Shown: positions 20,151-53,644 of the stretch, piece after piece
Layout of the letters: each line of letters opens with the position of its first letter
How positions within the stretch are numbered: position 1 is the stretch's first letter
From: Escherichia phage AV123
Length of the DNA stretch: 64,000 bases
Sequence record: OR352953.1
Reading direction: 5' to 3' (one strand)
Notes under the pieces: generated by a model
The model's database searches: none
Told to the model about the DNA's origin: nothing
The model's input: the letters and a program-made list of their open reading frames with translations, nothing else
Program-made: the position numbers and the translations under genes

Positions 20151-20963
20151 TTACTTAGTCAAATGATCTTCTATCATTTTTATGAAAGCAGGATTGCTAA
20201 AAGCATCTGCTGCCTTTTCTCTATAAACAAAGACTCCTCTATCTTCGTAAAGAAGAGTTTCTTCGTAATTAATTCCTGGGTTAACAACAATCATTTTTGT
20301 ACCCATAGTAAGTGCAGGGAATAATTCCCAATTAAAATTGATAACTTGGTTTGAACATCCTACTACAACAACCAAATCTTGCATGGTCAAAGTATCAAAC
20401 AAGTGAGCCATATCTGCATACAAAGGTGCAGCCTCACCAAAAAATACAACATTAGGCTTCACCCAGTTATAATCATCTATGTTTATACTATTGTAACCAA
20501 TGTCTACCAGTGTTTTGTAATCTCCAGGATGCATACGGTAAACTACTTCAGGGAGATACCCGTGCACGTGAATAACAGAATCCCTGTCCACACCTGCTCG
20601 CTCTAGTAGATCATCGACGTTTGTTGTCAAGTTTACTACTTGGTTAGGATATTCCTTAAACCACTTTGCTATTTGAATATGTGCAGCATTAGGTTGTACA
20701 TCTTTAAGCTCAACACGTCTTTTGTTATAAAATTCGTGTGTTTTGGCATATAAGTCCATACCGTTCTCGTCTACACCACCGACCACTGGAAGATCTGGAG
20801 ATGTTCTCACACGATAACCTGCTTGGAAAGCTCCAATATCGCAGACCTCTTCTAAGTCATATTCTTCCCATAAGGCACGACCACTATCTGTGTCTGTTCG
20901 GAACGTTCGAATCCCACTGTCTGCACTTAAACCTGCGCCACTAACAAAAATTACTCTTCGCAT
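20151..20963 (-). CDS. Sir2-family (sirtuin-like) NAD+-dependent protein (270 aa)
   Basis: GAGLSADSGIRTFR (cf. sirtuin GAGIS..SGIPDFR), TTNVDDL (cf. TQNIDGL), HVHG catalytic His, VVFFGE, VVVGCS; no CxxC zinc module seen. Confidence 0.7.
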   Translation of the reverse strand: MRRVIFVSGAGLSADSGIRTFRTDTDSGRALWEEYDLEEVCDIGAFQAGYRVRTSPDLPVVGGVDENGMDLYAKTHEFYNKRRVELKDVQPNAAHIQIAKWFKEYPNQVVNLTTNVDDLLERAGVDRDSVIHVHGYLPEVVYRMHPGDYKTLVDIGYNSINIDDYNWVKPNVVFFGEAAPLYADMAHLFDTLTMQDLVVVVGCSNQVINFNWELFPALTMGTKMIVVNPGINYEETLLYEDRGVFVYREKAADAFSNPAFIKMIEDHLTK

Positions 20964-22294: not shown

Positions 22295-23284
22295 CTATTC
22301 CTCCATACATTTAAGAATATGTGCAATGACAGGTATAGTCCAACCGTTACCTAACATCTTATATGCTTGTGTGTTACTACTCACTTTAAAGTAGTCATCT
22401 GGCACACCTTGCAAACGGCAACACTCTTTAACGGTTAACTTTCTATAATGTACGCCTTCACTCAATTTTTCAAAAGCATCTAAATATCTTCCAGGTGGAA
22501 TGTAAGCTAATAGTACGTCTTTCGGCACAGTCGTGAGGCAACGAGTTTTTTCACTGTCCTGAACTTCCAAACAATGTACCAAACGATCAGTTTTAGATGT
22601 ACTACGTTTGCCATTTTCATTAATTCTACGCCCATATATTGCTGCTGGATAAAAAACCAGTTGTCTGCGACTCTTTTCAAAATACTGTTCTATATTGCCA
22701 CCTTTGGCATAATTTGCATCTATGCAATAAGCCTTATCTCTGTCTACAATACTATCATCTTCAATGATATCTTGCAATACTTCATTGGTAATCTCCCAGG
22801 GTTTTATTTCCCAGTTGCACCAGTATAAACGTTGTCTATTCTGTGCCGTGAAATCTGCGGAGTTAATGAATACGGGATCAACACCTAAGTAACTTGTGAT
22901 CACGTTTTCCCACTCCACTTTCATCTTAACGTTTTCAAGCATGAACTTAACATTAGGGTTAAACTTTTTAATATGTTCAAGAATTTCAACATATTCGAAG
23001 AATAGCTTAGATCGCGGATCTTGAAAGTTCAAACCCTTACCAGAAGAAGAGAAGCCTTGACACGGACTACCACCTAACAAAAGATCAATTTCTCCCCACG
23101 GGATATCCCATTCTCTCCATTTTGTAACATCACCTAACTGAATAATATCTGGAAAATTTGCTTGGCTTTCAGCTATGGCAAATTTGTCTAATTCTGAAGC
23201 ATAATATGTATCTACTTCAATACCTGCACTTTTTAGCGCAAGCATTCCTCCTGACATACCATCAAAAAGACTTAAAACTTTCAT
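22295..23284 (-). CDS. DNA (cytosine-5)-methyltransferase (329 aa)
   Basis: FDGMSGG (AdoMet motif I), GGSPCQGFS (PCQ catalytic motif IV), ENV motif. Confidence 0.8.
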   Translation of the reverse strand: MKVLSLFDGMSGGMLALKSAGIEVDTYYASELDKFAIAESQANFPDIIQLGDVTKWREWDIPWGEIDLLLGGSPCQGFSSSGKGLNFQDPRSKLFFEYVEILEHIKKFNPNVKFMLENVKMKVEWENVITSYLGVDPVFINSADFTAQNRQRLYWCNWEIKPWEITNEVLQDIIEDDSIVDRDKAYCIDANYAKGGNIEQYFEKSRRQLVFYPAAIYGRRINENGKRSTSKTDRLVHCLEVQDSEKTRCLTTVPKDVLLAYIPPGRYLDAFEKLSEGVHYRKLTVKECCRLQGVPDDYFKVSSNTQAYKMLGNGWTIPVIAHILKCMEE

Positions 23285-27324: not shown

Positions 27325-27987
27325 TTATTTAATATTCAATTTTGCACAAAGACGTTGTACCGCTTTGGCATCGAACAAACTCCCACGAATAGTTCTCTTT
27401 CCTGATTCATTCAGATGCTTTGCAATCGTCATATATGGCGTTTTACAAGCTCTGTATGCAACTAAAGAATCTTTTAAAGAAAGCGCAAACTCTCTTGAGC
27501 GTTTTGCTTCTTCCGTTTTCGTATAATCTGTTCTTTTGTATTTAGGGTTTGCTGCACCAAGAAGCGTTCCCTTCGCTTTTGCTACCTTAAGGCTCTTCTT
27601 AACACGATCAGATATTGCACGAGCCTCTTCTTCTGCCAGAACTGCTAAAATATTTATTATCATATTTTCAGCGGAGGGCATAGTTGCTATTCGTACATTA
27701 ATCATCTCTAATAAGGTTGCAACAGAGGCTGTGTTACGTCCAAGACGGTCAACCTTAGCAACAACAAGTGTAGCACCTGTTTCTTTGCAAAGATTAACAG
27801 CTTTTACAAGCTCTCTACGTTGCTTCCAATCGCCTTTACCCGAATAAAACTCTGCAAAGCTACCTACAATAGTATAATTTTCTTGTGAATCCAGGAAGCG
27901 TTGAATATCTGCTTCCTGTGATTCTATACCATACTGGTTGCCTTGTTGTTTCTTCTTAGAAAGTCGATGATATAGTACAAACTTCAT
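27325..27987 (-). CDS. small serine recombinase (resolvase/invertase family, 220 aa)
   Basis: N-terminal YHRLSK with catalytic Ser, VAKVDRLGRN motif, C-terminal HTH-like segment. Confidence 0.75.
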   Translation of the reverse strand: MKFVLYHRLSKKKQQGNQYGIESQEADIQRFLDSQENYTIVGSFAEFYSGKGDWKQRRELVKAVNLCKETGATLVVAKVDRLGRNTASVATLLEMINVRIATMPSAENMIINILAVLAEEEARAISDRVKKSLKVAKAKGTLLGAANPKYKRTDYTKTEEAKRSREFALSLKDSLVAYRACKTPYMTIAKHLNESGKRTIRGSLFDAKAVQRLCAKLNIK

Positions 27988-29459: not shown

Positions 29460-30113
29460 TTAATTATCAGAGGACACTTTATCAAGTTTTTCAGAGACTG
29501 TCAATACTTTTTCTTGTGATTCTTTCATTTCTGCTAAAATACTTTCAGCTTCATCACTATCAGGATCACCAGTCAACAGCATACTAATTAGTTGCTCCTT
29601 GCTGAAGTTCAGAATATCTTCCGCTGTTAACTCCAGTTGTTCTTCGATCTCTTCGATAAAAGTTTCACCGCCTGAAAAAGCATCTCGCAGTTTTGCAACT
29701 TCCATCGCTTCTTCTGGGGTTGCCCCAGCGTCTAAAGCTGCTAAAGCAAAATCTGCCCCACTACCAACAGCATAATAATCTTCAGTTAAAGGATATGCTC
29801 GCGTTGGATTGTTACCCTCGTGCATATAAATTTTACCGTCTGGGTGAACAACTAATGCCACAAACTCTTCATCTTCTTTATCAGGATCTGACTGGATCAC
29901 CAAACCTGGGATTGTCTCTTGTGCTGCTTGGCATTGTAAGTTTTGTTCGAACCAAGAAAAGAAAGTCAGGATAGAAGACAGACGTCCTGCACCACCAACA
30001 AGGTAATCCCCAATTTTACGCACTTTCTTGAAATTTAAAGTGTCTACACGACTACCTACTGTTACTTTACCATCAGATAGAATTTTGTTATGTGTTGCAA
30101 TAATTGTTGTCAT
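29460..30113 (-). CDS. HslV-like Ntn-hydrolase peptidase with acidic C-terminal extension (217 aa)
   Basis: MTTIIA N-terminus (Thr nucleophile after Met), NFKKVRKI, VGGAG, AVGSGADFALAA align with E. coli HslV motifs; AGGAGG RBS. Confidence 0.65.
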   Translation of the reverse strand: MTTIIATHNKILSDGKVTVGSRVDTLNFKKVRKIGDYLVGGAGRLSSILTFFSWFEQNLQCQAAQETIPGLVIQSDPDKEDEEFVALVVHPDGKIYMHEGNNPTRAYPLTEDYYAVGSGADFALAALDAGATPEEAMEVAKLRDAFSGGETFIEEIEEQLELTAEDILNFSKEQLISMLLTGDPDSDEAESILAEMKESQEKVLTVSEKLDKVSSDN

Positions 30114-32092: not shown

Positions 32093-32359
32093 TTACTCCG
32101 CAATCTGAGCCATGAATTCACGTAGTTCAGAAAAACCTCCTACGTGGGTTAGCTGTTCACCATCTTCCACAAAAATCTGAGGAAATGTGCGTGGTAGAAC
32201 ACCTGTTTTCTCTACAACCAGATTCTGAATCTGATCTAAAGAATAGTCTTCATCTAAGGTAAGATATTTAAAATCCTGTTCACGCTGTTCTAGTAGAATC
32301 TTAGCGTTAGTGCAGAAAGGACAATTTGGTTTACCGTAGATAATAAAATTCATTTTCAC
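32093..32359 (-). CDS. glutaredoxin-like protein (NrdC/NrdH-type redoxin)
   Basis: CPFC active-site motif near N-terminus; 88 aa; adjacent to nucleotide-metabolism genes. Confidence 0.7.
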   Translation of the reverse strand: MKMNFIIYGKPNCPFCTNAKILLEQREQDFKYLTLDEDYSLDQIQNLVVEKTGVLPRTFPQIFVEDGEQLTHVGGFSELREFMAQIAE

Positions 32360-33186
32360 TCCTTGTTTAAAAGTATAGTTAAAGTTCTTACAATACCGCT
32401 ATCAACACTTCGCGGATTTAAAGTAGGATCTGTTTTTAAATAAGATGTTGCTGGTCTGACTGCTTTGGAATTATAGGTTGAAGCAGATACAGGATTAACT
32501 GTAACAGACAAATCTACAACAAGAAATATCTTTCGTGCAAAATCATACCAAGAAATATAATCTGCACCTGCATAGTGTACAATTTTACTATTTACACCAT
32601 CTTTTACAAGTTTAAAAATTGTTTCTGCAAGATCAGGTGCATAAGTAGGACATGATAAATGATCACATACTACATTAAATTCTTTTTGACCACCGTTGTA
32701 GCGTTCCAACATAGTTTTCAAAAAGTTATGTCCAAATTCACTATAAACAGAAGCTGTTCTGATAATAAGTGCTGTAGGACAAACTGTTTGTACTAAAGTT
32801 TCACCTAATTGTTTACTGTAACCGTAGGTGTTCAAGGGGTTTGTTTTACTATCTTCTGTGCCAGCAACATGCCCATCAAAAACATAGTCTGTTGAAATAT
32901 GTACAAACTGTATCAGTAAATCATTACATGCTTTGGCAATGTTTGTTGCACCGTATGCATTAACATTTATACAGGTGTTAACATCTTCTTCAGCTTTATC
33001 TACTGCCGTGTAAGCCGCACAATTCACAACAACATCAGGCACATGCTGTACAAGACTATTCATAACATCTTTAAAGTTGGTAATGTCTACATCACTTGCT
33101 TCAATCAAAATAACATCTTCGGGCGCAACTTTTGCCAAAGACTGTCCTAATTGACCTTTTGAACCAAAGATTAAAAATTTTGTCAA
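32356..33186 (-). CDS. rmlD: dTDP-4-dehydrorhamnose reductase
   Basis: N-terminal FGSKGQLG Rossmann motif; operon context with rmlC/A/B. Confidence 0.75.
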   Translation of the reverse strand: MTKFLIFGSKGQLGQSLAKVAPEDVILIEASDVDITNFKDVMNSLVQHVPDVVVNCAAYTAVDKAEEDVNTCINVNAYGATNIAKACNDLLIQFVHISTDYVFDGHVAGTEDSKTNPLNTYGYSKQLGETLVQTVCPTALIIRTASVYSEFGHNFLKTMLERYNGGQKEFNVVCDHLSCPTYAPDLAETIFKLVKDGVNSKIVHYAGADYISWYDFARKIFLVVDLSVTVNPVSASTYNSKAVRPATSYLKTDPTLNPRSVDSGIVRTLTILLNKE

Positions 33187-33737
33187 AATATGATCTCCTT
33201 TAGTGTTTTGGCTTGCTGATCTTTTTGTGACAAGATAGGTTTAAAATTAATATCATTAAAGATTAAATCAAAACCCCAATCAATATTGATATCTGGATCA
33301 TTCCACGCAAGACTACACTCTGAAGTCGGATCGTAATACTCTGTACATTTATATTCAAAATCAGCAATGTCACTAATCACAACAAAGCCATGAGCGAAAC
33401 CAGGAGGAATCCAAAATTGTGTTTTATTCTTTTCAGATAAGAGAACACCTACCCATTCTCCAAATGTTGGACTACCAACCCTAATATCTACAGCAACATC
33501 ATAAACTTCACCACGAACACAACGTACTAACTTCCCTTGTGGGTTTTTCTTTTGAAAATGAAGCCCACGTAGAACTCCTCGAATAGAACGTGAATGGTTG
33601 TCTTGGACAAAGTTTTGTTTACCTATGTATTGATCATATAAAGCCTGATTAAAACTTTCTAAGAAAAAACCACGTTCATCTCCGTAAACGTCAGGTTGAA
33701 TGATCAACAAATCTTCGATTTTTGTTGCTTGAATCAT
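33183..33737 (-). CDS. rmlC: dTDP-4-dehydrorhamnose 3,5-epimerase
   Basis: 184-aa cupin-size protein between rmlD and rmlA; RGLHFQ-like motif. Confidence 0.7.
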   Translation of the reverse strand: MIQATKIEDLLIIQPDVYGDERGFFLESFNQALYDQYIGKQNFVQDNHSRSIRGVLRGLHFQKKNPQGKLVRCVRGEVYDVAVDIRVGSPTFGEWVGVLLSEKNKTQFWIPPGFAHGFVVISDIADFEYKCTEYYDPTSECSLAWNDPDINIDWGFDLIFNDINFKPILSQKDQQAKTLKEIIF

Positions 33738-33749
33738 TTAATTCCCCCT

Positions 33750-34619
33750 TTATTTTAATTTAAGTAAATACTTACCGTAGTCTGTTTTACTTAAAACCTC
33801 TCCAGAACTTTTTACAGAGTCTAAAGTAATCCATTCATTTTTAAAAGCAATCTCTTCCAGGCATGCAACCTTCATACCTTGTTGCTTTTCTATTGCATGA
33901 ACAAATTGAGATGCTTCCATAAGACTTTCATGTGTTCCTGTATCCAGCCAAGTGAAACCTCTTCCTAGTTTACAGACACGTAAAGCCTTTTCTTTCCAGT
34001 ACATATCATTTATATCTGTAATCTCTAACTCCCCTCTAGCAGAAGGTTTAACGCTTTTAGCTTTCTGTATAACAGAATTATCGTAAAAGTACAAGCCTGT
34101 GATTGCATAGTTGCTTTTTGGTGCTTTTGGTTTTTCTTCAATACTCACCACTGTACCTTCAGAATCAAACTCAACAACACCAAATCTTTCAGGATCATTT
34201 ACGTGATACCCAAAAATATTAGCTCCACCATTCTTCTCAATATGTTCTTTAGCAGAATCTAAAATGCTACCAAAACTCTGACCAAAGAATAAATTATCAC
34301 CTAGCACAAGTGCTACAGAATCTTCACCAATAAAGTTCTCACCAATAATAAACGCTTCTGCTAAACCTCTTGGGCTATCCTGTATTGCATACTGTAGGGA
34401 AATACCAAAAGAGGAACCATCACCTAGAAGATTTACAAAATTAATTTGATCTTCTGGTGTTGTAATTATTAGTATTTCCCTAATTCCAGAAAGCATTAGG
34501 ACAGAGAGTGGATAATAAATCATAGGCTTATCATAAATTGGTAATAGTTGTTTACTAACCCCTTTAGTAACTGGGTAAAGTCTTGTTCCACTACCACCTG
34601 CTAAGATAATACCTTTCAT
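33750..34619 (-). CDS. rmlA: glucose-1-phosphate thymidylyltransferase
   Basis: [19 protein letters not shown]-terminal signature. Confidence 0.85.
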
Positions 34620-34627
34620 ACTCCTCC

Positions 34628-35617
34628 TTAAACTTTATTTTCCCACCACTCTTTGTTATCTACATACCAATCAATGGTTGAATAAAGTTTTTCTTCAAAT
34701 GTGCCTTTAGCTTTCCACCCTAATTCCTTTTCAATCTTATAAGGATTCACTTCATATCTTAGATCATGTCCAGGTCTATCTGTAACCATCTCAATTAGGC
34801 TACAAGCATCTGTTTCAGATGGATACACCGCATCCATATAATCACAAATCATATAGATTACATCAATATTAGTTCTAGGGTTTCTGCTCCCAATATTATA
34901 TGTTTCTCCAGATTTGCCTTTAGTTACTACTAGGTGTAATGCTTCTGCGTGATCGTCAACGTATAACCAGTCTCTTACTTGAAGACCATTGCCATAAACA
35001 GGGATTGGTTTATTCATCAAGATATTTGTTATCGTTTTAGGTATTAGTTTTTCTGGATGATGATATGCTCCAAAATTATTTGAACAATTTGTTATAACTG
35101 TCGGAATACCATAAGTACGATGCCACGCTCTTACCAAATGATCGCTTGCTGCCTTAGATGCAGCATATGGACTACTTGGCTTATAAGGATTCTGTTCTGT
35201 AAACGGATAATCCCCTTCTTCCATATCACCATATACTTCATCTGTTGAAATATGATGGAACATTTTAAGATTTGATTTATCTCCCATTAAACGAACAGCT
35301 TCTAGGAGATTAAATGTCCCAACAATATTTGAATTTATAAAAACACTCGGTGATGCTATTGAATTATCTACGTGACTTTCTGCTGCAAGATGCATTATAT
35401 AATCTGGATTAACATCTGCCACAATCTTAGCAGTTAACTGCGCATTTGTCAAGTCAACACGACAAAACTTTACATTGGGTGTTTCTGATAAATTTCTAGG
35501 GTCTGAAGCGTAACCCCATTTATCTATAACGTAAATATCATTTTTAGTATTTTTAGCCAGGAAACGAACTACCGCACTTCCAATAAAGCCTAAACCACCT
35601 GTTACTAAGTATTTCAT
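34628..35617 (-). CDS. rmlB: dTDP-glucose 4,6-dehydratase
   Basis: [20 protein letters not shown]-binding motif; SDR-type layout. Confidence 0.85.
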
Positions 35618-35811
35618 TTAGTCTCCTTCCAATTATTCCCTTCAGTAAAAATAATACCTTCATAAAACAACCATCTGGAACCTTTTTCAACAGGAACAGG
35701 AAGCTCTTCTTCAGTAAAGTTATAAACCTCTCTAGCATCTTCTAAAAGTGATGCAAATGTTTTTGGACTTACTGTTACGCGAGGAGCATTGATCAGTTGA
35801 TCTAGCATCAT
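35614..35811 (-). CDS. hypothetical protein (65 aa)
   Basis: internal ATG of track ORF with AAGGAGG RBS. Confidence 0.45.
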   Translation of the reverse strand: MMLDQLINAPRVTVSPKTFASLLEDAREVYNFTEEELPVPVEKGSRWLFYEGIIFTEGNNWKETK

Positions 35812-36496: not shown

Positions 36497-36683
36497 ACTT
36501 GGCTACACCATTAACTATGATATGACCGCAAGACATAACTCCTAGCCAATGATCACCATTCTTTTTTAAACGTTTGCCGTAAACATCACAGAAACCATTC
36601 TGTAATTCGGAAGCCTCGTAAGAGGCTCCCTTTTCGAAAACGTCTTTGAAGTCAGAAATTAATCCAACACAAAGTAGTTTCAT
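36465..36683 (-). CDS. hypothetical protein (72 aa)
   Basis: track ORF. Confidence 0.45.
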   Translation of the reverse strand: MKLLCVGLISDFKDVFEKGASYEASELQNGFCDVYGKRLKKNGDHWLGVMSCGHIIVNGVAKFEIIKGEKDD

Positions 36684-37768
36684 TAAAAGTCTAACTCCTC
36701 GTCATCACTTACATCTTTATTTGCTGAATTCAGTTTGTAAGCTGTAATTTGGATCTCCTGTGCTGCTGCTTGAATTTGATCTGGGTTTAACCAAACATCC
36801 ATCCAAGGCAGTGGACTTTTCTTCGGTGCACGGAATTTGTGTTTCATTTTCAGTCTGCGATAGATAGGTGCAGCATTGAAGTAAACCCAAAGTTTGAACA
36901 ACTCTGCGTTACCACCAACGATAACCCTTCCTTCACTAAACAGATAGTCACACCAATCTTCCTCTTGTCCAACTACCGTGTCAAGAATTTCTGTCAGAAC
37001 GTCGATATTATCTTCGTATACTTTTCTCCAAACAGGATCTTTCAGCAGTGCATCAATAATAGCATAATCCATTTTAACGTGCAATAGTTCATCCAACATA
37101 ATTTTTTGAATGAGTTTAGCTGCACCTACAAACAATTGCTGCTCTGCTAAGGCAAATGTTGCAGCAAAAGAGGAGATGAACTGAATACCTTCCAGACCGA
37201 TAAGTGCAATCATTCCTTTCAGGATCAGTAGACGAAGGTTATCATCCTTCTCAATCAGACCTAGAGCATATTTATGTCCTGCCTCTGCCAGATCACTCAT
37301 TATCTCTTCAACTATACCCATCCTCTGGAAGATTCTTTCATTCTCCATGATCTGATCGATAACTTCATTTGGATTAGGGATACACTGACGAATAATTTCA
37401 GAATATGTTAAAGCGTGTAAAACTTCCATTTCTGATTGCTTCATCATCATTGCACATGCTTCGTTGTTGCTTAAAAATGGTGCAAACAAAGTGATGATTG
37501 ATTTAGCAAGTGAATCATTTTCCCATTGGAAAGATAGGTTTTTGATCATAACATCATAGTTGCTTTTAGAACAAGCTACGAAATCTTTTCGTGTCTGATC
37601 TAAGTTTACTTCGTTTTCATCCCAATCTTGCTGTTTTTGTAGTTTGTACAGACGATGCATTTCTGGGTATGTTACGTTAATAGAATCAAAAATACCTAAC
37701 TGTTCGCCCAAAAATACAGGGTAGAAACCTTCTTTGTAAGTGTCGTTGTATAAATTAATTGCTGCCAT
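36683..37768 (-). CDS. nrdB: ribonucleotide reductase class Ia beta subunit
   Basis: 361-aa ORF immediately downstream of nrdA in the same orientation; call rests on size and gene order, no motif checked by eye; no intron interruption. Confidence 0.8.
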   Translation of the reverse strand: MAAINLYNDTYKEGFYPVFLGEQLGIFDSINVTYPEMHRLYKLQKQQDWDENEVNLDQTRKDFVACSKSNYDVMIKNLSFQWENDSLAKSIITLFAPFLSNNEACAMMMKQSEMEVLHALTYSEIIRQCIPNPNEVIDQIMENERIFQRMGIVEEIMSDLAEAGHKYALGLIEKDDNLRLLILKGMIALIGLEGIQFISSFAATFALAEQQLFVGAAKLIQKIMLDELLHVKMDYAIIDALLKDPVWRKVYEDNIDVLTEILDTVVGQEEDWCDYLFSEGRVIVGGNAELFKLWVYFNAAPIYRRLKMKHKFRAPKKSPLPWMDVWLNPDQIQAAAQEIQITAYKLNSANKDVSDDEELDF

Positions 37769-38131: not shown

Positions 38132-40393
38132 TTACATCTTACAAGCCTCACAACCGGATTCTTCATCCTCTTGAGCGAGTGAGGTTGCTGATTTTGTTCG
38201 ACTATTTAGATAGTACAAAGATTTACCACCAAGTTTTGCAAACTGAAGGATATATTGCATTTCTGATTTAATGGATAAACGACCACCTTCCATCTTAGAA
38301 TAGTCAATCCACTTGTCACATGATGCACCTTGATCTAAGAATTTAGTCAACAGTCCATATGCTTCAGCCATATCTTTATCTGGCGTATCCCAAGCCGATT
38401 GGTAAATATCTTTTAGTTTATCGTAATCTGGCACAATAAACAAGACATTACCTTTTTGGCTTTGTTTATAAACTATAGTATCACGTACAGGATACACAGA
38501 GTTAGTCGTATTACTTACAAGACTACTGGACTCATTCGGAGCAATAGCTGCTAATACACTATTTCGGATACCACCTTGTGCAATTATATCTTGTCGTAAA
38601 CCTTCCCAATCCATTTTAAGTTTAAAATTGCCAATATCGTCTACAGCTTTAGCGTAGGTATCAATAGGCAACCATCCTTCAGGCCATTTGGTTTTATGCA
38701 TCCATTCTGCATTACCTTTCTCTTTTGCCAAACGAAGAGAAGCTCTTGCTAACCAGTAATAATGTCTTTCTGCTAATTCGTGAATTAGTTTTTTGCCGTA
38801 AGGATCTGAATAAGTAACAAAATTACTTGCCAGATAATGTGCCAGGTTTGTAATACCTACACCGATAGACCTACGTGCTTTAGCAGTGATTTCGTTATGT
38901 TTAAACGGATACTGCATTGTTTCAATAACATTATCAATAGTTAGAACGGTATAATATGCAACATCTTCATATTCTTCTGGTGTAACACGACCAGCTACAA
39001 TAGAAGACAGGAAACATAATGCCAATTCTTGATCTTCTGTATTCTCACCTGTGAAAAGATCAGTCATACTGTGAAATGCTTTCGTAGGCAAGAAAATTTC
39101 TTGGCACAAGTTTGACTGATAAATAACATCCTTAAACGGAGTATGCTTATTAGCATTATCCGCAAAGAACATATAAATACGTCCTGTCTCTGCTCTTTGT
39201 GTAATAATTTCTGCCAGAAGATCTCGTGCTTTTACAAACTTCTTCTTAATTCGTTTGCGACTAACTTTTTCATATACTTCTTCAAACTCTTCCTCGCTTT
39301 TATAAAGCGCCTCATAGAGTTCTGGTGCTTCGTCATAACTAACTAGCATCCAATCTTTACCTTTTGCTGCACGGCGCAGGAAAGCATTGTTTACTACGAT
39401 AGAGTAATCAAGTTTATCTACTCGTTTTTCACTAACAGTAGTTGGGTTTTTCAAACGTACCAGATCTTCAAAATCAGGTTCTAATATTGTAAACGTTACT
39501 GTTGCACTTCCACCACGACTTGCTTGTTTTGATGCTCCAACACTTGTCTCCATCCATTTCAGATATGGTAAAAGACCACCGTGAACAATACGGTTGTTCT
39601 TAACACCTTGTCCTGTAGCACGGGTTTGGAGGTTAACACCAATACCTGCATTATTCAATGTATATTCATGAGCAAGATAGTTAGCAATTGCTAAAGATTC
39701 TGCTGTATCATCTGCTCTAAACAGACAACAAGAAGCACTACCTTTAATCTTAGTACGCAACGTTGTTAAATAAGGTGATGGTAAATTAATCTTAAGATCA
39801 CTTACGTAGGTATATAGACGTTTAATGTCTTCTACTCTGCGATCTTTTGGTTGGATTTCCATTACCTTCATTGCTACACCAATGAATAAAAATTGTGGTG
39901 ATTCAAAAACCACATCATTGATCGCATCTTTCACAAGATACTTATCAACCATCTGGCGCAGTACGGAATAACCATAAGTTAGGTTTTTATCATGATTGAT
40001 AATTTTACCAATCTCAATAATTTCTTCTTCTGTATAATTCATTTTCCCCCAATAGCCTTTACTTACAGACATATTGTAGAAATCCAGGAGGGAGGGGATA
40101 TTGTGATATCCCCCATGAGCCTGTTTATAGATCATACCAAGAAGTAACCGACCTGCCATATCACTATATGCCTGATCTTTCTTATCAATACATGCTGCTA
40201 TCATAGCTTTATGTAAATCACGAGTAGGCACACCGTCGTAACAACGTTTAACAGCTTCGAGTTCGATTTCAGACCAATTTAATTTACCAGCAGCAAACTC
40301 TGACCATTTACGAAGTTTTTCTGGATTAAATTCTTCTTTCTTGCCGTTTGTTTTTGTTACATAACGGATAGATTTGCTTAGATACTGAGTCAC
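38132..40393 (-). CDS. nrdA: ribonucleotide reductase class Ia alpha subunit (GTG start)
   Basis: 753-aa ORF upstream of nrdB, size typical of class Ia alpha subunit; call rests on size and gene order, no motif checked by eye. Confidence 0.85.
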   Translation of the reverse strand: MTQYLSKSIRYVTKTNGKKEEFNPEKLRKWSEFAAGKLNWSEIELEAVKRCYDGVPTRDLHKAMIAACIDKKDQAYSDMAGRLLLGMIYKQAHGGYHNIPSLLDFYNMSVSKGYWGKMNYTEEEIIEIGKIINHDKNLTYGYSVLRQMVDKYLVKDAINDVVFESPQFLFIGVAMKVMEIQPKDRRVEDIKRLYTYVSDLKINLPSPYLTTLRTKIKGSASCCLFRADDTAESLAIANYLAHEYTLNNAGIGVNLQTRATGQGVKNNRIVHGGLLPYLKWMETSVGASKQASRGGSATVTFTILEPDFEDLVRLKNPTTVSEKRVDKLDYSIVVNNAFLRRAAKGKDWMLVSYDEAPELYEALYKSEEEFEEVYEKVSRKRIKKKFVKARDLLAEIITQRAETGRIYMFFADNANKHTPFKDVIYQSNLCQEIFLPTKAFHSMTDLFTGENTEDQELALCFLSSIVAGRVTPEEYEDVAYYTVLTIDNVIETMQYPFKHNEITAKARRSIGVGITNLAHYLASNFVTYSDPYGKKLIHELAERHYYWLARASLRLAKEKGNAEWMHKTKWPEGWLPIDTYAKAVDDIGNFKLKMDWEGLRQDIIAQGGIRNSVLAAIAPNESSSLVSNTTNSVYPVRDTIVYKQSQKGNVLFIVPDYDKLKDIYQSAWDTPDKDMAEAYGLLTKFLDQGASCDKWIDYSKMEGGRLSIKSEMQYILQFAKLGGKSLYYLNSRTKSATSLAQEDEESGCEACKM

Positions 40394-41173: not shown

Positions 41174-42145
41174 TCACCATTTTGTATGGTTAGTCAAAAG
41201 TTGACGATGTTGAATCCAACCACAGAAGTTTCCACTCCACAAACGATGTTTACGATCCATATGTGTAATACCTTCTTCCCAAGAAGTAGGGAACGGAGGA
41301 ATATTAATACCACCTTTCTGTTGTTTTAATCCTGACAAATCCATTTCTTTCATTGGTGTTGCCTGGTGTTCAAACGGAGATGCATGTACCTTCTGTCCAG
41401 ACAGCAAACGAGAATAGATATCCAATGCTTTATCTTTAGTATCATTCAATTTACGATAACTTACCTGAGCGCAACAAGAAGCTGAGATAGCTTTTGCTTC
41501 ATCTTCTGTCAACATTTTCTCGTTGGAGAAGGTTTCACCCAAGAAATAACGGATCATACCAGTTTCTGGATCTCGATCACGATTAACGTAAGGTGTATGC
41601 CATTCCCCTGGGAAAAGAAGATATGGTTCAGAAGATTCATACAATTTTTTAATTTCTTTAGCAAGAGCCTCAATAGTAGGATCTGCATCAGCATCTACGC
41701 GCAACCACAAGAAGTTTTCTAGCTCTGTAGTGGTTACTACAGTCTTCATACGCTGGAATGGTTCTAGTAGGCGGTTTGCAACCTGTTTATGATAACCAGC
41801 AAGGGCAAACTCTTCTGCAAAACGTGCAGCACTTAGCGCAGCCAAGTCCCACCATTCTTTTGCAGTGTAACCTGCATCAATCAGGGCATCGTGATCTGTG
41901 CCTTTATCTTGCATACCTGGTTGGTTAGCACCAAAACGATAAGGACGTGCTGGAGATTGCCGTACCATTTCAATTAGAGTTTTAACAGGGATAGCTCGAC
42001 TTGATGCGGCATTACGAGAAAACAAACGATGCGTCATCAATTCAGAGTGAATGATTCGAGGATATTCAAGTTCAAAGGTAACAATATCCTTACCTTCAGA
42101 TGTTTGAGAGTGTGCAATAATTTTTGCTGAAATAGAATTTGTCAT
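41174..42145 (-). CDS. thyX: flavin-dependent thymidylate synthase
   Basis: THRLFSRNAASSRA matches ThyX RHRxxxxxxxS signature region. Confidence 0.65.
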   Translation of the reverse strand: MTNSISAKIIAHSQTSEGKDIVTFELEYPRIIHSELMTHRLFSRNAASSRAIPVKTLIEMVRQSPARPYRFGANQPGMQDKGTDHDALIDAGYTAKEWWDLAALSAARFAEEFALAGYHKQVANRLLEPFQRMKTVVTTTELENFLWLRVDADADPTIEALAKEIKKLYESSEPYLLFPGEWHTPYVNRDRDPETGMIRYFLGETFSNEKMLTEDEAKAISASCCAQVSYRKLNDTKDKALDIYSRLLSGQKVHASPFEHQATPMKEMDLSGLKQQKGGINIPPFPTSWEEGITHMDRKHRLWSGNFCGWIQHRQLLTNHTKW

Positions 42146-42154
42146 TATTTCTCC

Positions 42155-42745
42155 TTAAGGTAGTAAAATACTTTCAATTTCTTCCCACTGATTATCTAAA
42201 CCAGTGATAATTACATTAGGAAGTTTCTTTAACTCTTCCAAGTATGGATCTTCGTAAATAGTGTTGAAATATATTTTCAACGTTTCATCTGGAAATAGGA
42301 CAAGATTTTCAGCCCTATCGTCAATAGTTACGTCGCAAGGTAATAAGTATTTTTCTTTTGTTGCGAAAAAGCCATTACCAGATGTTCTACTAAAGTCCAC
42401 TTTATCTAAAGATCGTGTTACGTGTCTATATTTAGAACTAAGGTGTCCACCCTTAGTGTGGCTTGCTATAGATATATTAGCTCCATTTGCAATTATACGA
42501 TGAACAACATCTGTACTATTAGGTACTACTCCCATAGTATCATATAGATGTTGGTTATCCCAAAAAGAGTAAGGATCTACACCAAATTGCTTTTTAAAAT
42601 CAGGAAAATATTTCGTAATATCATAATGCACAGTCTTTTGTGTCTTATCAAACTTGATATTAGATCTACTTACCGCATTTAACCAACTCAACCATTCTAC
42701 ATCGGCAGGGGCTATTACTAAATCCCAATCACATACTAGACGCAT
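42155..42745 (-). CDS. HAD-superfamily 5'(3')-deoxyribonucleotidase-like protein, tentative
   Basis: internal ATG with CAGGAG RBS; N-terminal DxD (CDWDLV) and C-terminal TIDDR motifs. Confidence 0.35.
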   Translation of the reverse strand: MRLVCDWDLVIAPADVEWLSWLNAVSRSNIKFDKTQKTVHYDITKYFPDFKKQFGVDPYSFWDNQHLYDTMGVVPNSTDVVHRIIANGANISIASHTKGGHLSSKYRHVTRSLDKVDFSRTSGNGFFATKEKYLLPCDVTIDDRAENLVLFPDETLKIYFNTIYEDPYLEELKKLPNVIITGLDNQWEEIESILLP

Positions 42746-43292
42746 TATTTCTCCTGTTATAACATTTTCTACACATTGTTTCGTAAATGTCTTCTCCTCC
42801 AATAACAATCTGTTCTTTAGAGTCGATAAGTCTAGCATTGAAAATAGCTTTTCTTCCACATTTACAAATGCTTTTCAATTCTGTAATTGAATCTGCTATG
42901 GCTAATAACCGTTCAGAACCTTCAAACAATTCTGTAGCAAAATCTGTTTTAAGCCCATAACAGAATACAGGAATATCGTAATTATCTACCACATCTCCAA
43001 GAATGTCAACCATATCTTTAGTTAGGAATTGTGATTCGTCCACAAATACTGCATCTACTGGATTTTCTTTAAGTTGTGTATAAATTTCCAGCATATCTTC
43101 TTTTGTTTTAACTGGTTTTGCTTCCTCTTTAATACCTATCCTAGAAGCAATAGCACAACCAGATCTGGTATCTAAAGCTGAAGTTAAAAGAAGAACTTTC
43201 ATATTTCTTTCTTTATAGTTCCAAGCTGTTTGTAGCAGATGTGTGCTTTTACCACTGTTCATCGGACTATATCGGAAATAAAGTTTAGCCAT
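42729..43292 (-). CDS. tdk: thymidine kinase
   Basis: SPMNSGKST P-loop and C-terminal CxxC zinc motif. Confidence 0.85.
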   Translation of the reverse strand: MAKLYFRYSPMNSGKSTHLLQTAWNYKERNMKVLLLTSALDTRSGCAIASRIGIKEEAKPVKTKEDMLEIYTQLKENPVDAVFVDESQFLTKDMVDILGDVVDNYDIPVFCYGLKTDFATELFEGSERLLAIADSITELKSICKCGRKAIFNARLIDSKEQIVIGGEDIYETMCRKCYNRRNNASSM

Positions 43293-43337: not shown

Positions 43338-43913
43338 TTATTTCTCTTCGTCAAGAAGAATTTTTACTATTTGTTTTCTTCGCTTACTTACTGTACTTTC
43401 TGGTGAAATTCCGCGCTTCGTTAGCCAATTTTTATCCTTTTTAGACTGGCATAAAGCTATCGCTTCCTTCTCCGCTTTTGCTTCCCTGAATGTCATATCG
43501 TGCTTGTCAGCATAAGCCAGGATAGCGTTACACTGCTTACAAACTACACGCAGGTCGTCTTCTGTTACGTACAATAAGCGTAAAACAAAACTTGGAATAT
43601 CTTCATAACAGGTTAATGTACCTGCTGCATTAATATGGTCTACTTGAAAGTCTTTCATACCTCCTGTATGTCCACACAATTCACATTTACAATTCCAAAC
43701 CTGTTTCGGTTTGCCTGTTTTCTTATCTAAGACTATATTTCCATCTTTATCCAACCTATCCGCTTTAAATCGTACAGATTGGATCTTTTTTATCTTATTC
43801 GGGTGTCTCACCCATGCTTTCCTTAAGCAACCCCTTAAATATGTATAAAAGGCTGCTTGAGTTTTCCAAGGTGTTCCATCTCCCCAAATAACTTTAGGTT
43901 CTTTATTTTCCAA
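43338..43913 (-). CDS. HNH-family endonuclease (possible free-standing homing endonuclease)
   Basis: CELCGH ... DHI ... CKQCN spacing typical of HNH nuclease. Confidence 0.5.
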   Translation of the reverse strand: MENKEPKVIWGDGTPWKTQAAFYTYLRGCLRKAWVRHPNKIKKIQSVRFKADRLDKDGNIVLDKKTGKPKQVWNCKCELCGHTGGMKDFQVDHINAAGTLTCYEDIPSFVLRLLYVTEDDLRVVCKQCNAILAYADKHDMTFREAKAEKEAIALCQSKKDKNWLTKRGISPESTVSKRRKQIVKILLDEEK

Positions 43914-44097
43914 TAGTGCTCACCTTTTTAGCTACATAATCTCCTGGTGGAATGTTATATTTAAAGAAAAGCATACGGTCTAAACCAGCCTTACACATGT
44001 TTTCTGGGATTGTGATTGTATATAAGAGTTTATCTCCACGTTTATTGTATATTTTATATACTTCACCCTCTCCGTATTGTTTACCGTGAGAAGCCAT
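43903..44097 (-). CDS. hypothetical protein (64 aa)
   Basis: track ORF. Confidence 0.4.
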   Translation of the reverse strand: MASHGKQYGEGEVYKIYNKRGDKLLYTITIPENMCKAGLDRMLFFKYNIPPGDYVAKKVSTIGK

Positions 44098-44482
44098 CTA
44101 CGCTCTCCTTCAATGTTTCAATAGCATCTGCTGCTTCAATATACTTACCTTTGTACATTGCTTTTAAAGCCTTACGAACAAGATCATCGTCTGTGTATAA
44201 ATCAATTAGCTGATTAGCTAACTCAATTTTTACAGGATTTTTTAAGTTAGGGTAGGCTTCATACAACATATTGTAATACTTATCACTTAATTCTTTTTCA
44301 ATATGAATAACGTGAATCGCTTTGTTTAGGTTGATCACACGATCACCTTTGTTTCGACAAGCATACTTAGCTAACTTAGTGAAACAAGGAGTTGCACCAA
44401 TTAGATATGCAAGTTCCAAAGGTTGCATACGCATACGTTTGTAGTGATCACCATCAATTTGAATATCCAGTGCTGTAGTCAT
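44081..44482 (-). CDS. hypothetical protein (133 aa)
   Basis: track ORF; GGAGG RBS. Confidence 0.55.
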   Translation of the reverse strand: MTTALDIQIDGDHYKRMRMQPLELAYLIGATPCFTKLAKYACRNKGDRVINLNKAIHVIHIEKELSDKYYNMLYEAYPNLKNPVKIELANQLIDLYTDDDLVRKALKAMYKGKYIEAADAIETLKESVDGFSR

Positions 44483-44497
44483 AAATCCTCCAAAAAT

Positions 44498-44520
44498 AAA
44501 GGGGCTTTCGCCCCTTTTTT
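44498..44520 (-). terminator. intergenic GC hairpin AAAGGGGCTTTCGCCCCTTTTTT (terminator-like)
   Basis: third copy of the same hairpin; T-runs on both sides. Confidence 0.55.
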
Positions 44521-44521
44521 A

Positions 44522-45484
44522 TTAAATTCCAATAACAGTGTTTACACGCTTCTCTTTGCTACGCAAATTAACACGTCCACGAGACAGGCTATTACATGAT
44601 GTGCATCTTAGCACTTGGAATGTACTAACCGCTGTTGTGTAAACCTTACCAGGAACAACTTCAAGGTGCTCTTTACCGCAACGAGGACAACGAAGTTTTT
44701 CATCGTCATAGAATGCAGATACGTTAGGATGTTGTGGAATCCATGCACGAAGTTTGATGTAAAGATCTCTAAGAGAAACAACATCACCATCATTGTATGT
44801 TTGCATACGGAAGAAGGCATGTCTATCTCCTTCACAACATGCTTTCCACAAAGGAAAACCTTCATTGTCAAGTTTAAAGTTTTCTGTATCAAAATACAAA
44901 CACATTTCTTTAAGCGCATTAGAAGGTAGTGCAAACTGCTTCTTAGCTGCCTTGAGTGTATCAATTACAACATAATGTGATGGTGGCTCCATACCGTGAA
45001 AAGCAAAACGTTGGTTAATATAAGCCTTATCAAACTTAATACCGTTGTGCGCGATCACAATATCTGCATCGTCAAGCAAGTGCCAGAGATCTTGACATAA
45101 TTCCCAATCATCTGTATGATCTATGTCAAACAAAGGGTAATTGCTAAGGTTCTTACCTTCTACTTCCCCTGTTTCTAAATCAGCAGATGAATAGGAAAGC
45201 AAGTAACCTCGACGAATAACTTGTTCAGGTGCAATAAAGGCTTTGAAACGTGAGAAGCTATACACAATCTCCGGTGCTGTCTCTACGTCAATAATTTTAA
45301 TTACTGGCCCACCTTTATCTTGCGGAGCACCACGATGTGGTGAATTTACACGAGCTAAGTAATCATTTACTGTGCTCTTCTTAGTAGAACTTCCCAACAC
45401 CTCTTGTGCAATCTTACGCGAAGAATAACCTTGTGCTTTCATAGATACAATCAAGGCTTTCTGTTCGTCTGTTAATTTACTCAA
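44522..45484 (-). CDS. DnaQ-like (DEDD) 3'-5' exonuclease with N-terminal HTH and C-terminal zinc ribbon
   Basis: IDVETAPE (Exo I), AHNGIKFD (Exo II), CPRCG/CTSCN. Confidence 0.55.
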   Translation of the reverse strand: MSKLTDEQKALIVSMKAQGYSSRKIAQEVLGSSTKKSTVNDYLARVNSPHRGAPQDKGGPVIKIIDVETAPEIVYSFSRFKAFIAPEQVIRRGYLLSYSSADLETGEVEGKNLSNYPLFDIDHTDDWELCQDLWHLLDDADIVIAHNGIKFDKAYINQRFAFHGMEPPSHYVVIDTLKAAKKQFALPSNALKEMCLYFDTENFKLDNEGFPLWKACCEGDRHAFFRMQTYNDGDVVSLRDLYIKLRAWIPQHPNVSAFYDDEKLRCPRCGKEHLEVVPGKVYTTAVSTFQVLRCTSCNSLSRGRVNLRSKEKRVNTVIGI

Positions 45485-46515
45485 TGTTCCTCCTGCTCTG
45501 AAATATATGCTTGTAGCATACTTTCAAAAGTTGTTTCATCATTCGCCCAACGTTTCATATATACCAACTGAAAAATTGTCTCTATCCATTCATCAGTTGT
45601 CATTTCTACTTCTTCACCATCCCAAGAAGTAAATTTAACGCCATCTGGGAACCATTCATAATACTGATCTTTAACTGTCTGAAAAAGTTCAGCTTGTGTT
45701 TTACATTTGGAAATAAGATTAAAGCAAGTAATATCTCCAAACTTAACATCGAAATCTTGGTAAGGTCGAATACTATCTGTCTTATCACCCATTAGCATTT
45801 GATAAGCTAACCAGTAACTACCCCAACCCTTAACTTCTTTTTTCTTACCTTTTTCTACGATCCAGATATCACCGATAGATTCATCAATCAGAATAACACA
45901 AGGATTTTTATAAACACCATCCTCTTTATAAAAGTTAAAGAGTAAACTTGGTGTATGTAAGCTATCTTTGTCGATAGATGCTACAATATGAGAAAACTTA
46001 CCAGTTTCCTTGTAGGCTTTATACCCTGCATATCCATAGATTTCTAAAGCATCATCTGCCTCAATACCAGTAACAACGTCACCGTTATGTTTTTCAACTA
46101 GATAATCTTTAGTATCTGATAATTGGATTGGTCTTAAATCTGATCGTTCTGATTTATATTCTTTTGGCATTTTGAAAGAATGCCGGAAGGTTTTTCCTAC
46201 CCCGATGACACCGCAATACTTTTGAAGTTTTAGGTGATCCACCATCTGGGTTATTTTTGTCTTTGCAGCTTGAAACGTAAAAGAAATATTCTCTGGGACT
46301 ATTTGAACATCTTTTATTTCAAAATCTTCCTTGGAGAACAACTTCTTACCAGCAGCTTCGCGTTGCGCGTTAAGTGCTCCTAACCATCCTCCAATATTTT
46401 TTGAAGATTTACCCCAAAAATCTGTTCTTGTTTCAAACTCTTTTACATTACCGGAAGCCTTGTGTACAGCGTGGATTTTTCTTTGTTCTAAAGCTGAAGA
46501 CGCTTGGAACGCCAC
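45481..46515 (-). CDS. rnh: RNase H / FEN-family 5'-3' exonuclease
   Basis: GIEADDALE and LMGDKTDSIRP resemble T4 RNase H EADD and GDKKDN motifs. Confidence 0.55.
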   Translation of the reverse strand: MAFQASSALEQRKIHAVHKASGNVKEFETRTDFWGKSSKNIGGWLGALNAQREAAGKKLFSKEDFEIKDVQIVPENISFTFQAAKTKITQMVDHLKLQKYCGVIGVGKTFRHSFKMPKEYKSERSDLRPIQLSDTKDYLVEKHNGDVVTGIEADDALEIYGYAGYKAYKETGKFSHIVASIDKDSLHTPSLLFNFYKEDGVYKNPCVILIDESIGDIWIVEKGKKKEVKGWGSYWLAYQMLMGDKTDSIRPYQDFDVKFGDITCFNLISKCKTQAELFQTVKDQYYEWFPDGVKFTSWDGEEVEMTTDEWIETIFQLVYMKRWANDETTFESMLQAYISEQEEH

Positions 46516-46607
46516 TTGATCGTAGTCTATTGCAAGAATTGTGTTCTCGTCAACATATTTGTGCAGGTCTTCCGGTTGGATTAAAATGTAACCGCTAATA
46601 TTACCTC

Positions 46608-46820
46608 CTATTCATCATCTGAACTCTCTGTTGAGAATGTTCGTGTGTAGGGACACTGACGACTTGCAGAAACCTCTATAACCTTGTCGTACATACCGTT
46701 AGAGTAAAAACAGTATTTTGTACTTCCAGAAACTTGTTCTCCAGAATTAATTAAAGTTATTTGACCAGCATAAGAATAAGAACTTATTACTAAAAGTAAA
46801 CCGACAAGAAGTTTTTTCAT
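46608..46820 (-). CDS. small secreted protein with signal peptide (70 aa)
   Basis: MKKLLVGLLLVISSYSYA signal-like N-terminus; AAGGAG RBS. Confidence 0.55.
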   Translation of the reverse strand: MKKLLVGLLLVISSYSYAGQITLINSGEQVSGSTKYCFYSNGMYDKVIEVSASRQCPYTRTFSTESSDDE

Positions 46821-53269: not shown

Positions 53270-53644
53270 TTAATAGTTAACACGTTTAATTTCAACACCA
53301 TAGGATGAAATAAAATTTTCCTTAGCTAACATATATTTACCAGCAGCAGAAGGATTTGATGTATGAACATAGATAGTTTTAAGAGCATCCCATTCACCAG
53401 CGTACAACATACATTCTACATCTAAGAACGCATGATAGCCTTCTTGATCTTCCCCAAGATCATTATCGAAGTGTATTTCTGAGATATTATTGAAATTATC
53501 TTCATCTGAAACAAAAGATGACCAATCCCCAAAAGATTTTAACCAAATGGCATCCTCATAACCATAATCTTTAGGATCTCTTAAATCGTCTAACCAAAGA
53601 ATTTTAGCCACTATCAACACCCTTCCTGTTTCTCTTCTTTCCAA
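53270..53644 (-). CDS. hypothetical protein (124 aa)
   Basis: track ORF; conserved-looking WLDDLRDP, HFDNDLG, VHTSNP segments of unknown family. Confidence 0.5.
   Translation of the reverse strand: MERRETGRVLIVAKILWLDDLRDPKDYGYEDAIWLKSFGDWSSFVSDEDNFNNISEIHFDNDLGEDQEGYHAFLDVECMLYAGEWDALKTIYVHTSNPSAAGKYMLAKENFISSYGVEIKRVNY

Follow-up and report, generated by a model that had tools for sequence, protein, structure and literature searches.

A dTDP-L-rhamnose gene block in Escherichia phage AV123 and its possible role as donor supply for phage glycosyltransferases

The rml genes, coding for the synthesis of deoxythymidine diphosphate (dTDP)-L-rhamnose, are already known from phages of the subfamily Stephanstirmvirinae, where they have been annotated since phAPEC8 and discussed in print. 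Olsen et al. (2020) called the pathway “peculiar” and guessed that it serves DNA glycosylation (PMC7552041). Maffei et al. (2021) wrote of a “putative dTDP glycosylation machinery,” yet reported exceptional sensitivity to restriction-modification in these phages (PMC8594841), and a 2023 paper reported that phage ESCO37 lacks two of the rml genes (PMC10269720). No functional study of a phage rml block, and no metabolite data on dTDP-L-rhamnose in infection, could be found in the searchable literature. Here, we analyze the rml block of Escherichia phage AV123 (sequence record OR352953.1) within a stretch of 64,000 nucleotides, referred to as the window. The window belongs to a Justusliebigvirus, i.e., a phi92-like myovirus of the Stephanstirmvirinae, and is colinear with positions 81.8 to 144.6 kb of phage alia. 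Its 4-kb rml region is 98.6 to 99.2% identical to those of SD2, ESCO8, arall, inny, alia, and many others, in which rml is annotated. More than 50 Justusliebigvirus records carry the same annotation at 97 to 99% nucleotide identity, and the RmlC and RmlA orthologues of Phapecoctavirus are 62 to 72% identical to the proteins of the window. The block does not differ materially from those of phi92, phAPEC8, and other Stephanstirmvirinae, and the window simply adds a further member to the group. Incidentally, four records labeled “Campylobacter phage” with host C. jejuni (MG065639, MG065645, MG065656, and MG065689) are 98.9% identical to E. coli Justusliebigvirus in this region, so their host label looks doubtful.

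The explanation that we propose is that the block provides a supply of dTDP-rhamnose, independent of the host, for the transferases of the phage itself, which most likely decorate virion proteins. As a whole, we regard it as evenly poised. The products of rmlB, rmlA, rmlC, and rmlD would turn glucose-1-phosphate and deoxythymidine triphosphate (dTTP) into dTDP-L-rhamnose inside the infected cell, the purpose being independence from the host for the donor sugar. The donor would then be consumed by a cluster of four phage genes, coding for two glycosyltransferase paralogues of the GT-B fold, a third glycosyltransferase of the GT-A fold that carries a DxD motif, and a small protein resembling transferases. 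Virion proteins would be the likeliest acceptors, and the result would be a rhamnose-containing glycan coat, comparable to the glycosylated capsids of mycobacteriophages and to giant-virus surfaces decorated with rhamnose.

The rml gene block

The block consists of four contiguous genes on the minus strand, at 32356-35617, as the original prediction had read it; the listing of open reading frames (ORFs) returned the exact coordinates and the N-termini that had been quoted. The first gene is rmlB (dTDP-glucose 4,6-dehydratase; 34628-35617, 329 amino acids [aa]), followed by rmlA (glucose-1-phosphate thymidylyltransferase; 33750-34619, 289 aa), rmlC (dTDP-4-dehydrorhamnose 3,5-epimerase; 33183-33737, 184 aa), and rmlD (dTDP-4-dehydrorhamnose reductase; 32356-33186, 276 aa with a TTG start). 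The curated equivalog cut-offs of NCBIfam were used as the criterion of identity, and Pfam was in agreement. All four proteins scored above them: RmlB with 443.3 bits on TIGR01181 (cut-off, 365.1), RmlA with 471.9 bits on TIGR01207 (360.65), RmlC with 260.4 bits on TIGR01221 (155.75), and RmlD, with the smallest margin of the four, 254.2 bits on TIGR01214 (224.05). Among solved structures, the top matches were Salmonella RmlB 1g1a (E 6e-117), 1iim for RmlA (E 1e-124), 1dzr for RmlC (E 6e-64), and, for RmlD, the Bacillus and Clostridium enzymes 3sc6 and 1vl0 (E about 1e-44; 4e-44).

The catalytic signatures are intact in all four proteins, which disposes of the possibility, also raised originally, that they are paralogues lacking the Rml catalytic residues. 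RmlA keeps the motifs GGSGTRL (residues 8 to 14), SKQLLP, LGDN, EEKP, and WLDTGT in the alignment with 1iim, together with K23, D108, K163, and D226. RmlB keeps GGLGFIGS (7 to 14, a Rossmann GxxGxxG), the T125-D126-E127 triad, and Y151-x3-K155, and RmlD keeps GSKGQLG (8 to 14), STDYVF, T99, and Y121-x3-K125. In RmlC, the catalytic His, Lys, Tyr, and Asp are present as H60, K69, Y129, and D173, aligned to the Salmonella equivalents, which we take to be H63, K73, Y133, and D170. Judging from these features, the four genes very probably code for a genuine and intact pathway from glucose-1-phosphate and dTTP to dTDP-L-rhamnose, the formation of the product being predicted. To judge by the model score, RmlD would presumably yield L-rhamnose rather than 6-deoxy-L-talose, which differ in the stereochemistry at C4. 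It should be noted that residues 111 to 116 of RmlA read FFGQSF in the phage and FYGHDL in E. coli and Salmonella RmlA; this loop presumably contributes to the secondary (allosteric) nucleotide-sugar site, and feedback control might differ.

The genes are tightly packed. The TTG start of rmlD overlaps the stop of rmlC, the rmlC/rmlD and rmlD/glutaredoxin junctions are both 4-nucleotide (nt) overlaps, the remaining intergenic gaps measure 8 to 12 nt, and a Shine-Dalgarno sequence precedes each of the four genes. Immediately upstream, a small minus-strand ORF (35614-35811, ca. 65 aa; phrog_27883, function unknown, alia_193 in alia) overlaps the rmlB start with its stop (ATGA) and has a GGAG ribosome-binding site. 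It is not found upstream of rmlB in Phapecoctavirus ESCO5, and it is uncertain whether it forms part of the rml module. A scan for promoters and terminators between 31 and 41.5 kb gave counts equal to the shuffled expectation. A separate transcription unit is thus not definable, and “operon” here can only mean a gene block inside a long co-directional cluster.

Several features indicate that the block was not captured recently from a host and has resided for a long time in this lineage. The GC content at third codon positions is 0.20 to 0.24 in the rml genes and 0.25 to 0.34 in nrdA and nrdB, the two neighbors checked. Compared with the E. coli K-12 enzymes, identity is low (64% for RmlA [RfbA], 57% for RmlC, and 34% for RmlD [RfbD]), RmlD is closer to enzymes of the Firmicutes type than to the enterobacterial one, and the gene order is B-A-C-D in the phage versus B-D-A-C in K-12. 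Besides, Justusliebigvirus, Phapecoctavirus, and a member of the subfamily that infects Klebsiella all preserve the arrangement glutaredoxin (grx)-rmlD-rmlC-[rmlA-rmlB]-small ORFs-nrdB-nrdA.

The conserved core and the candidate consumers of the sugar

The four genes are not equally conserved. Comparison of ESCO37 with ESCO5 revealed a clean absence of rmlB-rmlA in ESCO37, with rmlC and rmlD intact, and Klebsiella phage KP13-26 has only rmlD-rmlC, rmlA and rmlB being absent. A 149-kb IMG/VR contig (L026) carries rmlA-rmlC-rmlD, and rmlB was not found in the 10-kb flanks fetched. All the relatives examined, including these three, retain rmlC. In a tblastn search over the phage collection, RmlC was found in 105 Escherichia and 8 Klebsiella records and RmlA in 87 and 0, respectively. 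Hence, rmlC and rmlD are a conserved core, to which rmlA and rmlB are accessory. The genetics of the host offers an explanation. The substrate of RmlC, dTDP-4-keto-6-deoxy-D-glucose, is made in the host by RffH and RffG, two enzymes of the enterobacterial common antigen (ECA) pathway. Of 5426 complete E. coli genomes, 5309 (98%) contain the genes of these enzymes, rffG-rffH, and 2199 (41%, a lower bound given the sensitivity of blastn) have a detectable rfbC-like gene. As rffGH is nearly universal and rfbC patchy, a broad-host-range phage that needs dTDP-L-rhamnose must carry RmlC and RmlD, and RmlA and RmlB only raise the flux. rmlC and rmlD would therefore be indispensable in the many E. coli without RmlC/RmlD, and the flux-boosting pair would be what some relatives have lost.

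RmlC homologues are also common in viral metagenomes, with 382 confirmed IMG/VR stretches, and a series of these loci (L037 to L101) consists mostly of cassettes of an rmlB-like gene, rmlC, and a second short-chain dehydrogenase/reductase (SDR), without rmlA or a recognizable rmlD. Genes for 6-deoxyhexose tailoring are thus widespread in phages beyond the Stephanstirmvirinae.

No glycosyltransferase had been recognized originally in the window, and that observation holds: none of the scanned ORFs of at least 100 aa gave a Pfam glycosyltransferase match. It does not extend to the genome, since the relative alia has four glycosyltransferase-like genes, gp044 to gp047, on the minus strand at 43544-46720, directly beside the primase/helicase, and all match glycosyltransferase PHROGs. 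This region (43.5 to 46.7 kb) falls outside the span of alia that is colinear with the window. Homologues of the cluster are carried by the closest relatives of the window (gp047 in SD2 and gp046 in ESCO8). gp044 and gp045 are paralogues (phrog_7162), and an AlphaFold model of the gp044 family is a confident GT-B, GT4-like structure (predicted local distance difference test [pLDDT], 94.6), with fold matches to BshA, MshA, PglA, and GtfC/Gtf3 and, lower down, to T4 beta-glucosyltransferase. gp046 is a compact GT-A with an invariant FDDD motif (DxD; pLDDT, 89.6), and the top fold match of its model is A197 of the archaeal virus STIV. gp047 (187 aa, phrog_14179) is transferase-like and the best conserved of the four, with 75% identity between alia and KP13-26; a sequence search of it against solved structures, up to E 10, returned no match.

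The distribution of these genes follows that of the rml core closely. Among Escherichia phage records, 106 have gp044, 106 have gp046, and 105 have gp047, to be compared with the 105 that have RmlC, and the smaller groups of records (Klebsiella, “Campylobacter,” and named genera) also agree between rmlC and the transferases. Even KP13-26, the smallest variant examined, keeps one GT-B and a gp047-like gene along with rmlC/rmlD. This parallel argues for a role as glycosyl donor, and we consider it probable that dTDP-rhamnose serves the transferases of the phage itself; that these enzymes use it as their donor is what we infer.

The same data bear on the idea that the block manipulates nucleotide pools, either as a sink or regulator of dTTP and glucose-1-phosphate or through dTDP-rhamnose as a feedback effector without a dedicated transferase. 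Its location would fit, inside a thymidylate and ribonucleotide-reductase module in all the genera examined. However, the step that consumes dTTP (rmlA) is precisely the one missing in ESCO37 and KP13-26, where rmlC and rmlD stay, which argues against the purpose of draining dTTP that had been suggested originally. A dTTP sink would also oppose the phage’s own investment in thyX, tdk, and nrd, and the co-distribution with the transferase cluster favors the donor role, so that an effect on nucleotide pools appears very improbable.

Possible acceptors of the sugar

Transfer of rhamnose from dTDP-rhamnose to a modified base, in the style of the glucosyl-hydroxymethylcytosine (HMC) of T4, would protect the phage from restriction and other defenses that target DNA. 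This is the role proposed by Olsen et al., and it was among those suggested originally. The surroundings are suggestive: the rml block shares its region with nrdAB, thyX, and tdk, and the transferase genes are next to the primase/helicase and DNA polymerase. In addition, a C5-cytosine DNA methyltransferase gene in the window (22295-23284, minus strand, 146 bits) might in principle supply a TET-type route. A structural alignment of the gp044 model with T4 beta-glucosyltransferase gave a template modeling score (TM-score) of 0.63, and gp046 matched the Pfam TET-associated glycosyltransferase (TAGT) family (24.1 bits versus 27.5, over 64 residues only) and the beta-glucosyl-HMC alpha-glucosyltransferase PHROG (E 4e-5), in both cases below threshold. 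These last two matches, however, cover only the N-terminal nucleotide-binding part common to all GT-A enzymes. The search for glycosyltransferases and base-modification genes that the original prediction had called for was run on alia and, while it recovered the four transferase-like genes, it gave no base-hydroxymethylating enzyme. More specifically, neither a TET/JBP dioxygenase nor a ThyA-type hydroxymethylase nor any other base-modifying enzyme turned up in the window (Pfam), among ORFs of at least 110 aa at 34.6 to 81 kb of alia (its replication/early region, scanned except for two ORFs at 73.6 to 76.2 kb annotated as ATPase and endonuclease), or in the RefSeq annotation. The ThyX-like and tdk genes, in turn, indicate canonical thymidine, and four transferases suggest the assembly of an oligosaccharide, not the addition of a single sugar. 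The absence of a base-hydroxymethylating enzyme from these searches, together with the restriction sensitivity reported by Maffei et al., makes DNA rhamnosylation quite unlikely.

The host envelope is another candidate target. In this case, the transferases would alter lipopolysaccharide, O-antigen, capsule, or another surface glycan and thereby block superinfection or adsorption to debris. GT-B enzymes of the GT4-like type commonly act on lipid-linked or cell-wall glycans (PglA, TarM, and PimA are among the fold matches), the source annotation of some metagenomic homologues places them among the glycosyltransferases of cell wall biosynthesis, and the phages of this group recognize several surface glycans (PMC8594841; BASEL completion paper). 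On the other side, no Pfam families of flippases or polymerases (Wzx/Wzy), Gtr-type or bactoprenol-linked transferases, or ABC transporters were detected in the window and the scanned regions of alia. The phage is virulent with a short cycle, and the distant homologues of the transferases sit in phage head/packaging modules and not in surface-polysaccharide loci. We consider envelope remodeling unlikely. A variant of this idea, diversion of the ECA precursor dTDP-4-keto-6-deoxyglucose to alter the phage receptor, was dropped: the primary receptor is now attributed to the NGR glycan and not to ECA, and the data did not support it.

The acceptor might instead be a host or phage protein outside the virion, or a small molecule (a translation factor, an adhesin-like protein, or a defense signal), modified for takeover or anti-defense. 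There is a precedent in EarP, which uses dTDP-rhamnose to modify elongation factor P. GtfC, Gtf3, and SdgB, all of them protein O-glycosyltransferases, are among the fold matches, and both the rml block and the transferase cluster are among the early/middle genes. In a Burkholderia contig (L010, 3025-8440), moreover, a full-length homologue of the gp044-type GT-B (P0063), with 35% identity, lies directly downstream of an invasin-type inverse autotransporter and a 571-aa unknown protein, an arrangement that hints at adhesin glycosylation. This is, however, the only bacterial context of its kind, and the hypothesis points to no particular target. The transferases showed no detectable similarity to EarP or to toxin glycosyltransferases, and four of them exceed the needs of a single-site modification. 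A non-structural acceptor thus seems improbable.

Of the roles originally put forward, glycosylation of virion proteins, itself putative, is the best supported. Distant homologues of the transferases occur within or next to head and packaging modules of small phages. In a 36-kb phage contig, a homologous GT-A/GT-B pair is located at the head of an operon, directly upstream of the small terminase, portal, protease, and capsid genes, and in another contig the terminase is immediately preceded by a transferase homologue, an acetyltransferase, and a GT2. In Cellulophaga phage phi18:2, gp39, with its gp047-like domain, is encoded between the portal/MuF and the protease/capsid genes, after a methyltransferase. 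The same GT-A/GT-B pair occurs 1.5 kb from an SDR resembling dTDP-glucose dehydratase in yet another phage contig, and elsewhere a GT2-family transferase, an SDR, a radical-SAM enzyme, and a DegT aminotransferase form a cassette together with a GT-B homologue. There are also precedents among viruses. Mimivirus R141 and L780 make UDP-L-rhamnose for glycosylated fibrils (PMC9614988), and mycobacteriophages use transferases of their own to glycosylate the capsid and the tail tube protein (cited in PMC12363180 and PMC11256854).

Several points weigh against virion glycosylation. The searchable literature offers no report that virions of this phage group are glycosylated. The rml genes and the transferase cluster, moreover, are in replication and nucleotide-metabolism modules, outside the structural genes. 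The fold matches of the gp044 and gp046 models are generic (TM-scores of 0.3 to 0.66, T4 beta-glucosyltransferase included); an attempt to assign donor and acceptor by structure prediction and fold search of the PDB gave only GT-A and GT4-like matches of this kind, and none of the four transferases is assignable to a donor or an acceptor by sequence or fold. The shared distribution of rml and transferases, all within one subfamily, may reflect common descent. In a survey of the neighbors of RmlC, covering 80 of the 382 RmlC-encoding IMG/VR stretches (mostly rmlB-rmlC-SDR cassettes from other phage types), transferases of the gp044, gp046, or gp047 type were essentially absent within 10 kb, with one marginal GT-A match (L052, E 1e-5). 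The link to mycobacteriophages is weak, since direct homology to the transferases of Che8 had to be rejected (gp044 and gp046 against gp108-110, BLASTP E of at least 0.19); the matches in mycobacteriophages are themselves weak (ca. 26% identity, E ca. 1e-7) and involve a different transferase at the equivalent locus.

Taking both sides together, that virion proteins are the acceptor is plausible but somewhat doubtful. The more specific proposal, i.e., that phi92- and phAPEC8-like phages build a rhamnose glycan on their own capsid or tail by means of three or four transferases and of rmlC/rmlD, whether or not rmlA/rmlB are present, is put forward only tentatively. If true, it would give the tailed phages of Enterobacteria their first described case of a glycosylated virion and would extend to Gram-negative phages a phenomenon of mycobacteriophages and giant viruses, with consequences for the immunogenicity, stability, and host recognition of phages widely used as therapy candidates, as a glycan shield can alter antibody recognition. 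Modification of DNA or of the host surface, were that the case, would represent a new mechanism of counter-defense or exclusion. The natural variants (rmlABCD, rmlACD, and rmlCD), together with the shared distribution of the transferases, provide a ready genetic framework.

Neighboring genes and comparison with described systems

The neighbors originally named (glutaredoxin, nrdAB, thyX, and tdk) are real, thyX being divergent, and the adjacency to nucleotide-metabolism genes is conserved across genera. The glutaredoxin gene (32093-32359) adjoins rmlD through one of the 4-nt overlaps. The nrdA product (38132-40393) scored 482.6 bits (cut-off, 341), whereas that of nrdB (36683-37768) stayed below its cut-off (160.9 bits versus 346) and is annotated as nrdB in relatives. 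The tdk product (42729-43292) exceeded its cut-off with 238.9 bits versus 195. The divergent ThyX-like gene (41174-42145, minus strand), annotated as thymidylate synthase, reached 35.8 bits on TIGR02170 (cut-off, 87.9); its Pfam Thy1 match (33 bits) extends across about half of the protein, and sequence does not establish its activity.

Other genes of the window are farther from the block. Near the C5-cytosine methyltransferase there is a Sir2-family protein (20151-20963, minus strand; Pfam SIR2, 76 bits), and several ORFs without annotation separate and surround the two. A ribose-phosphate diphosphokinase-like gene (55659-56552, plus strand; 118.8 bits versus 113) is adjoined by a nicotinamide/nicotinate phosphoribosyltransferase (56624-58357, plus strand; 461.8 bits versus 405), and the pair (55659-58357) is reminiscent of the pathways by which phages reconstitute NAD+ against NAD-depleting defense systems. 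ARAGORN detected 15 tRNA genes clustered at 59145-62200 on the plus strand, including two Met, two Leu, and two Ser. The Pfam sweep also retrieved a T4 gp30.8-like protein (5890-6273, plus strand), a serine resolvase/invertase (27325-27987, minus strand), an HslV/proteasome-like peptidase (29460-30113, minus strand), and a cREC_REC (cyclic-phosphate processing receiver) protein (53270-53644, minus strand) beside an RNA ligase and a phosphoesterase. In alia, outside the span of the window, a Ter-type cluster at ca. 49.4 to 58.1 kb comprises a TerF-like vWA protein, TelA, TerC, a ComF-like phosphoribosyltransferase, and an HAD hydrolase, and a NADAR-domain protein is encoded at 76.2 to 76.8 kb.

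The block can be compared with four described systems. With the bacterial rmlBDAC/rfbBDAC clusters of E. coli and Salmonella, it shares the four enzyme families and the catalytic residues. It differs in the gene order, the divergence from the K-12 proteins (34 to 64% identity), and the Firmicutes-like RmlD; in addition, phage RmlB is ca. 30 residues shorter than that of Salmonella, and the phage block lies in a nucleotide-metabolism module, whereas the bacterial one is in the O-antigen cluster. The glucosylation of DNA in T-even phages, in which alpha- and beta-glucosyltransferases modify hydroxymethylcytosine, is similar in that transferases of a lytic coliphage are encoded near replication genes and in the generic similarity of the GT-B fold. 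In contrast, in the phi92-like phage no hydroxymethylase was found, phi92-like phages are restriction sensitive (PMC8594841), and the donor is a dTDP-6-deoxyhexose made by the phage, compared to the UDP-glucose of the host.

The glycosylation cassettes of mycobacteriophages (Che8, Corndog, and Myrna), described by Freeman et al. (2023) according to papers that cite this work, are likewise clusters of several phage transferases. Weak homologues of gp046 are found in 88 mycobacteriophage records, those sampled being cluster F (Cheoctovirus), and in Shauna1, where it was checked, the homologue is at the position of the Che8 glycosyltransferase cassette. These mycobacteriophages are, unlike the phi92-like ones, temperate siphoviruses of Actinobacteria, and no sugar-nucleotide pathway was seen in the 6- to 7-kb cassette regions viewed. 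As to Mimivirus R141/L780, virion glycosylation has been demonstrated there and is only inferred for the phi92-like phage, and Mimivirus uses two enzymes and UDP-sugars in place of the phage’s four bacterial-type dTDP enzymes. Nevertheless, Mimivirus R141 (6vlo) is a detectable homologue of phage RmlB (E 4e-61), and both systems combine a virus-encoded 6-deoxyhexose pathway with several virus-encoded transferases (PMC9614988).

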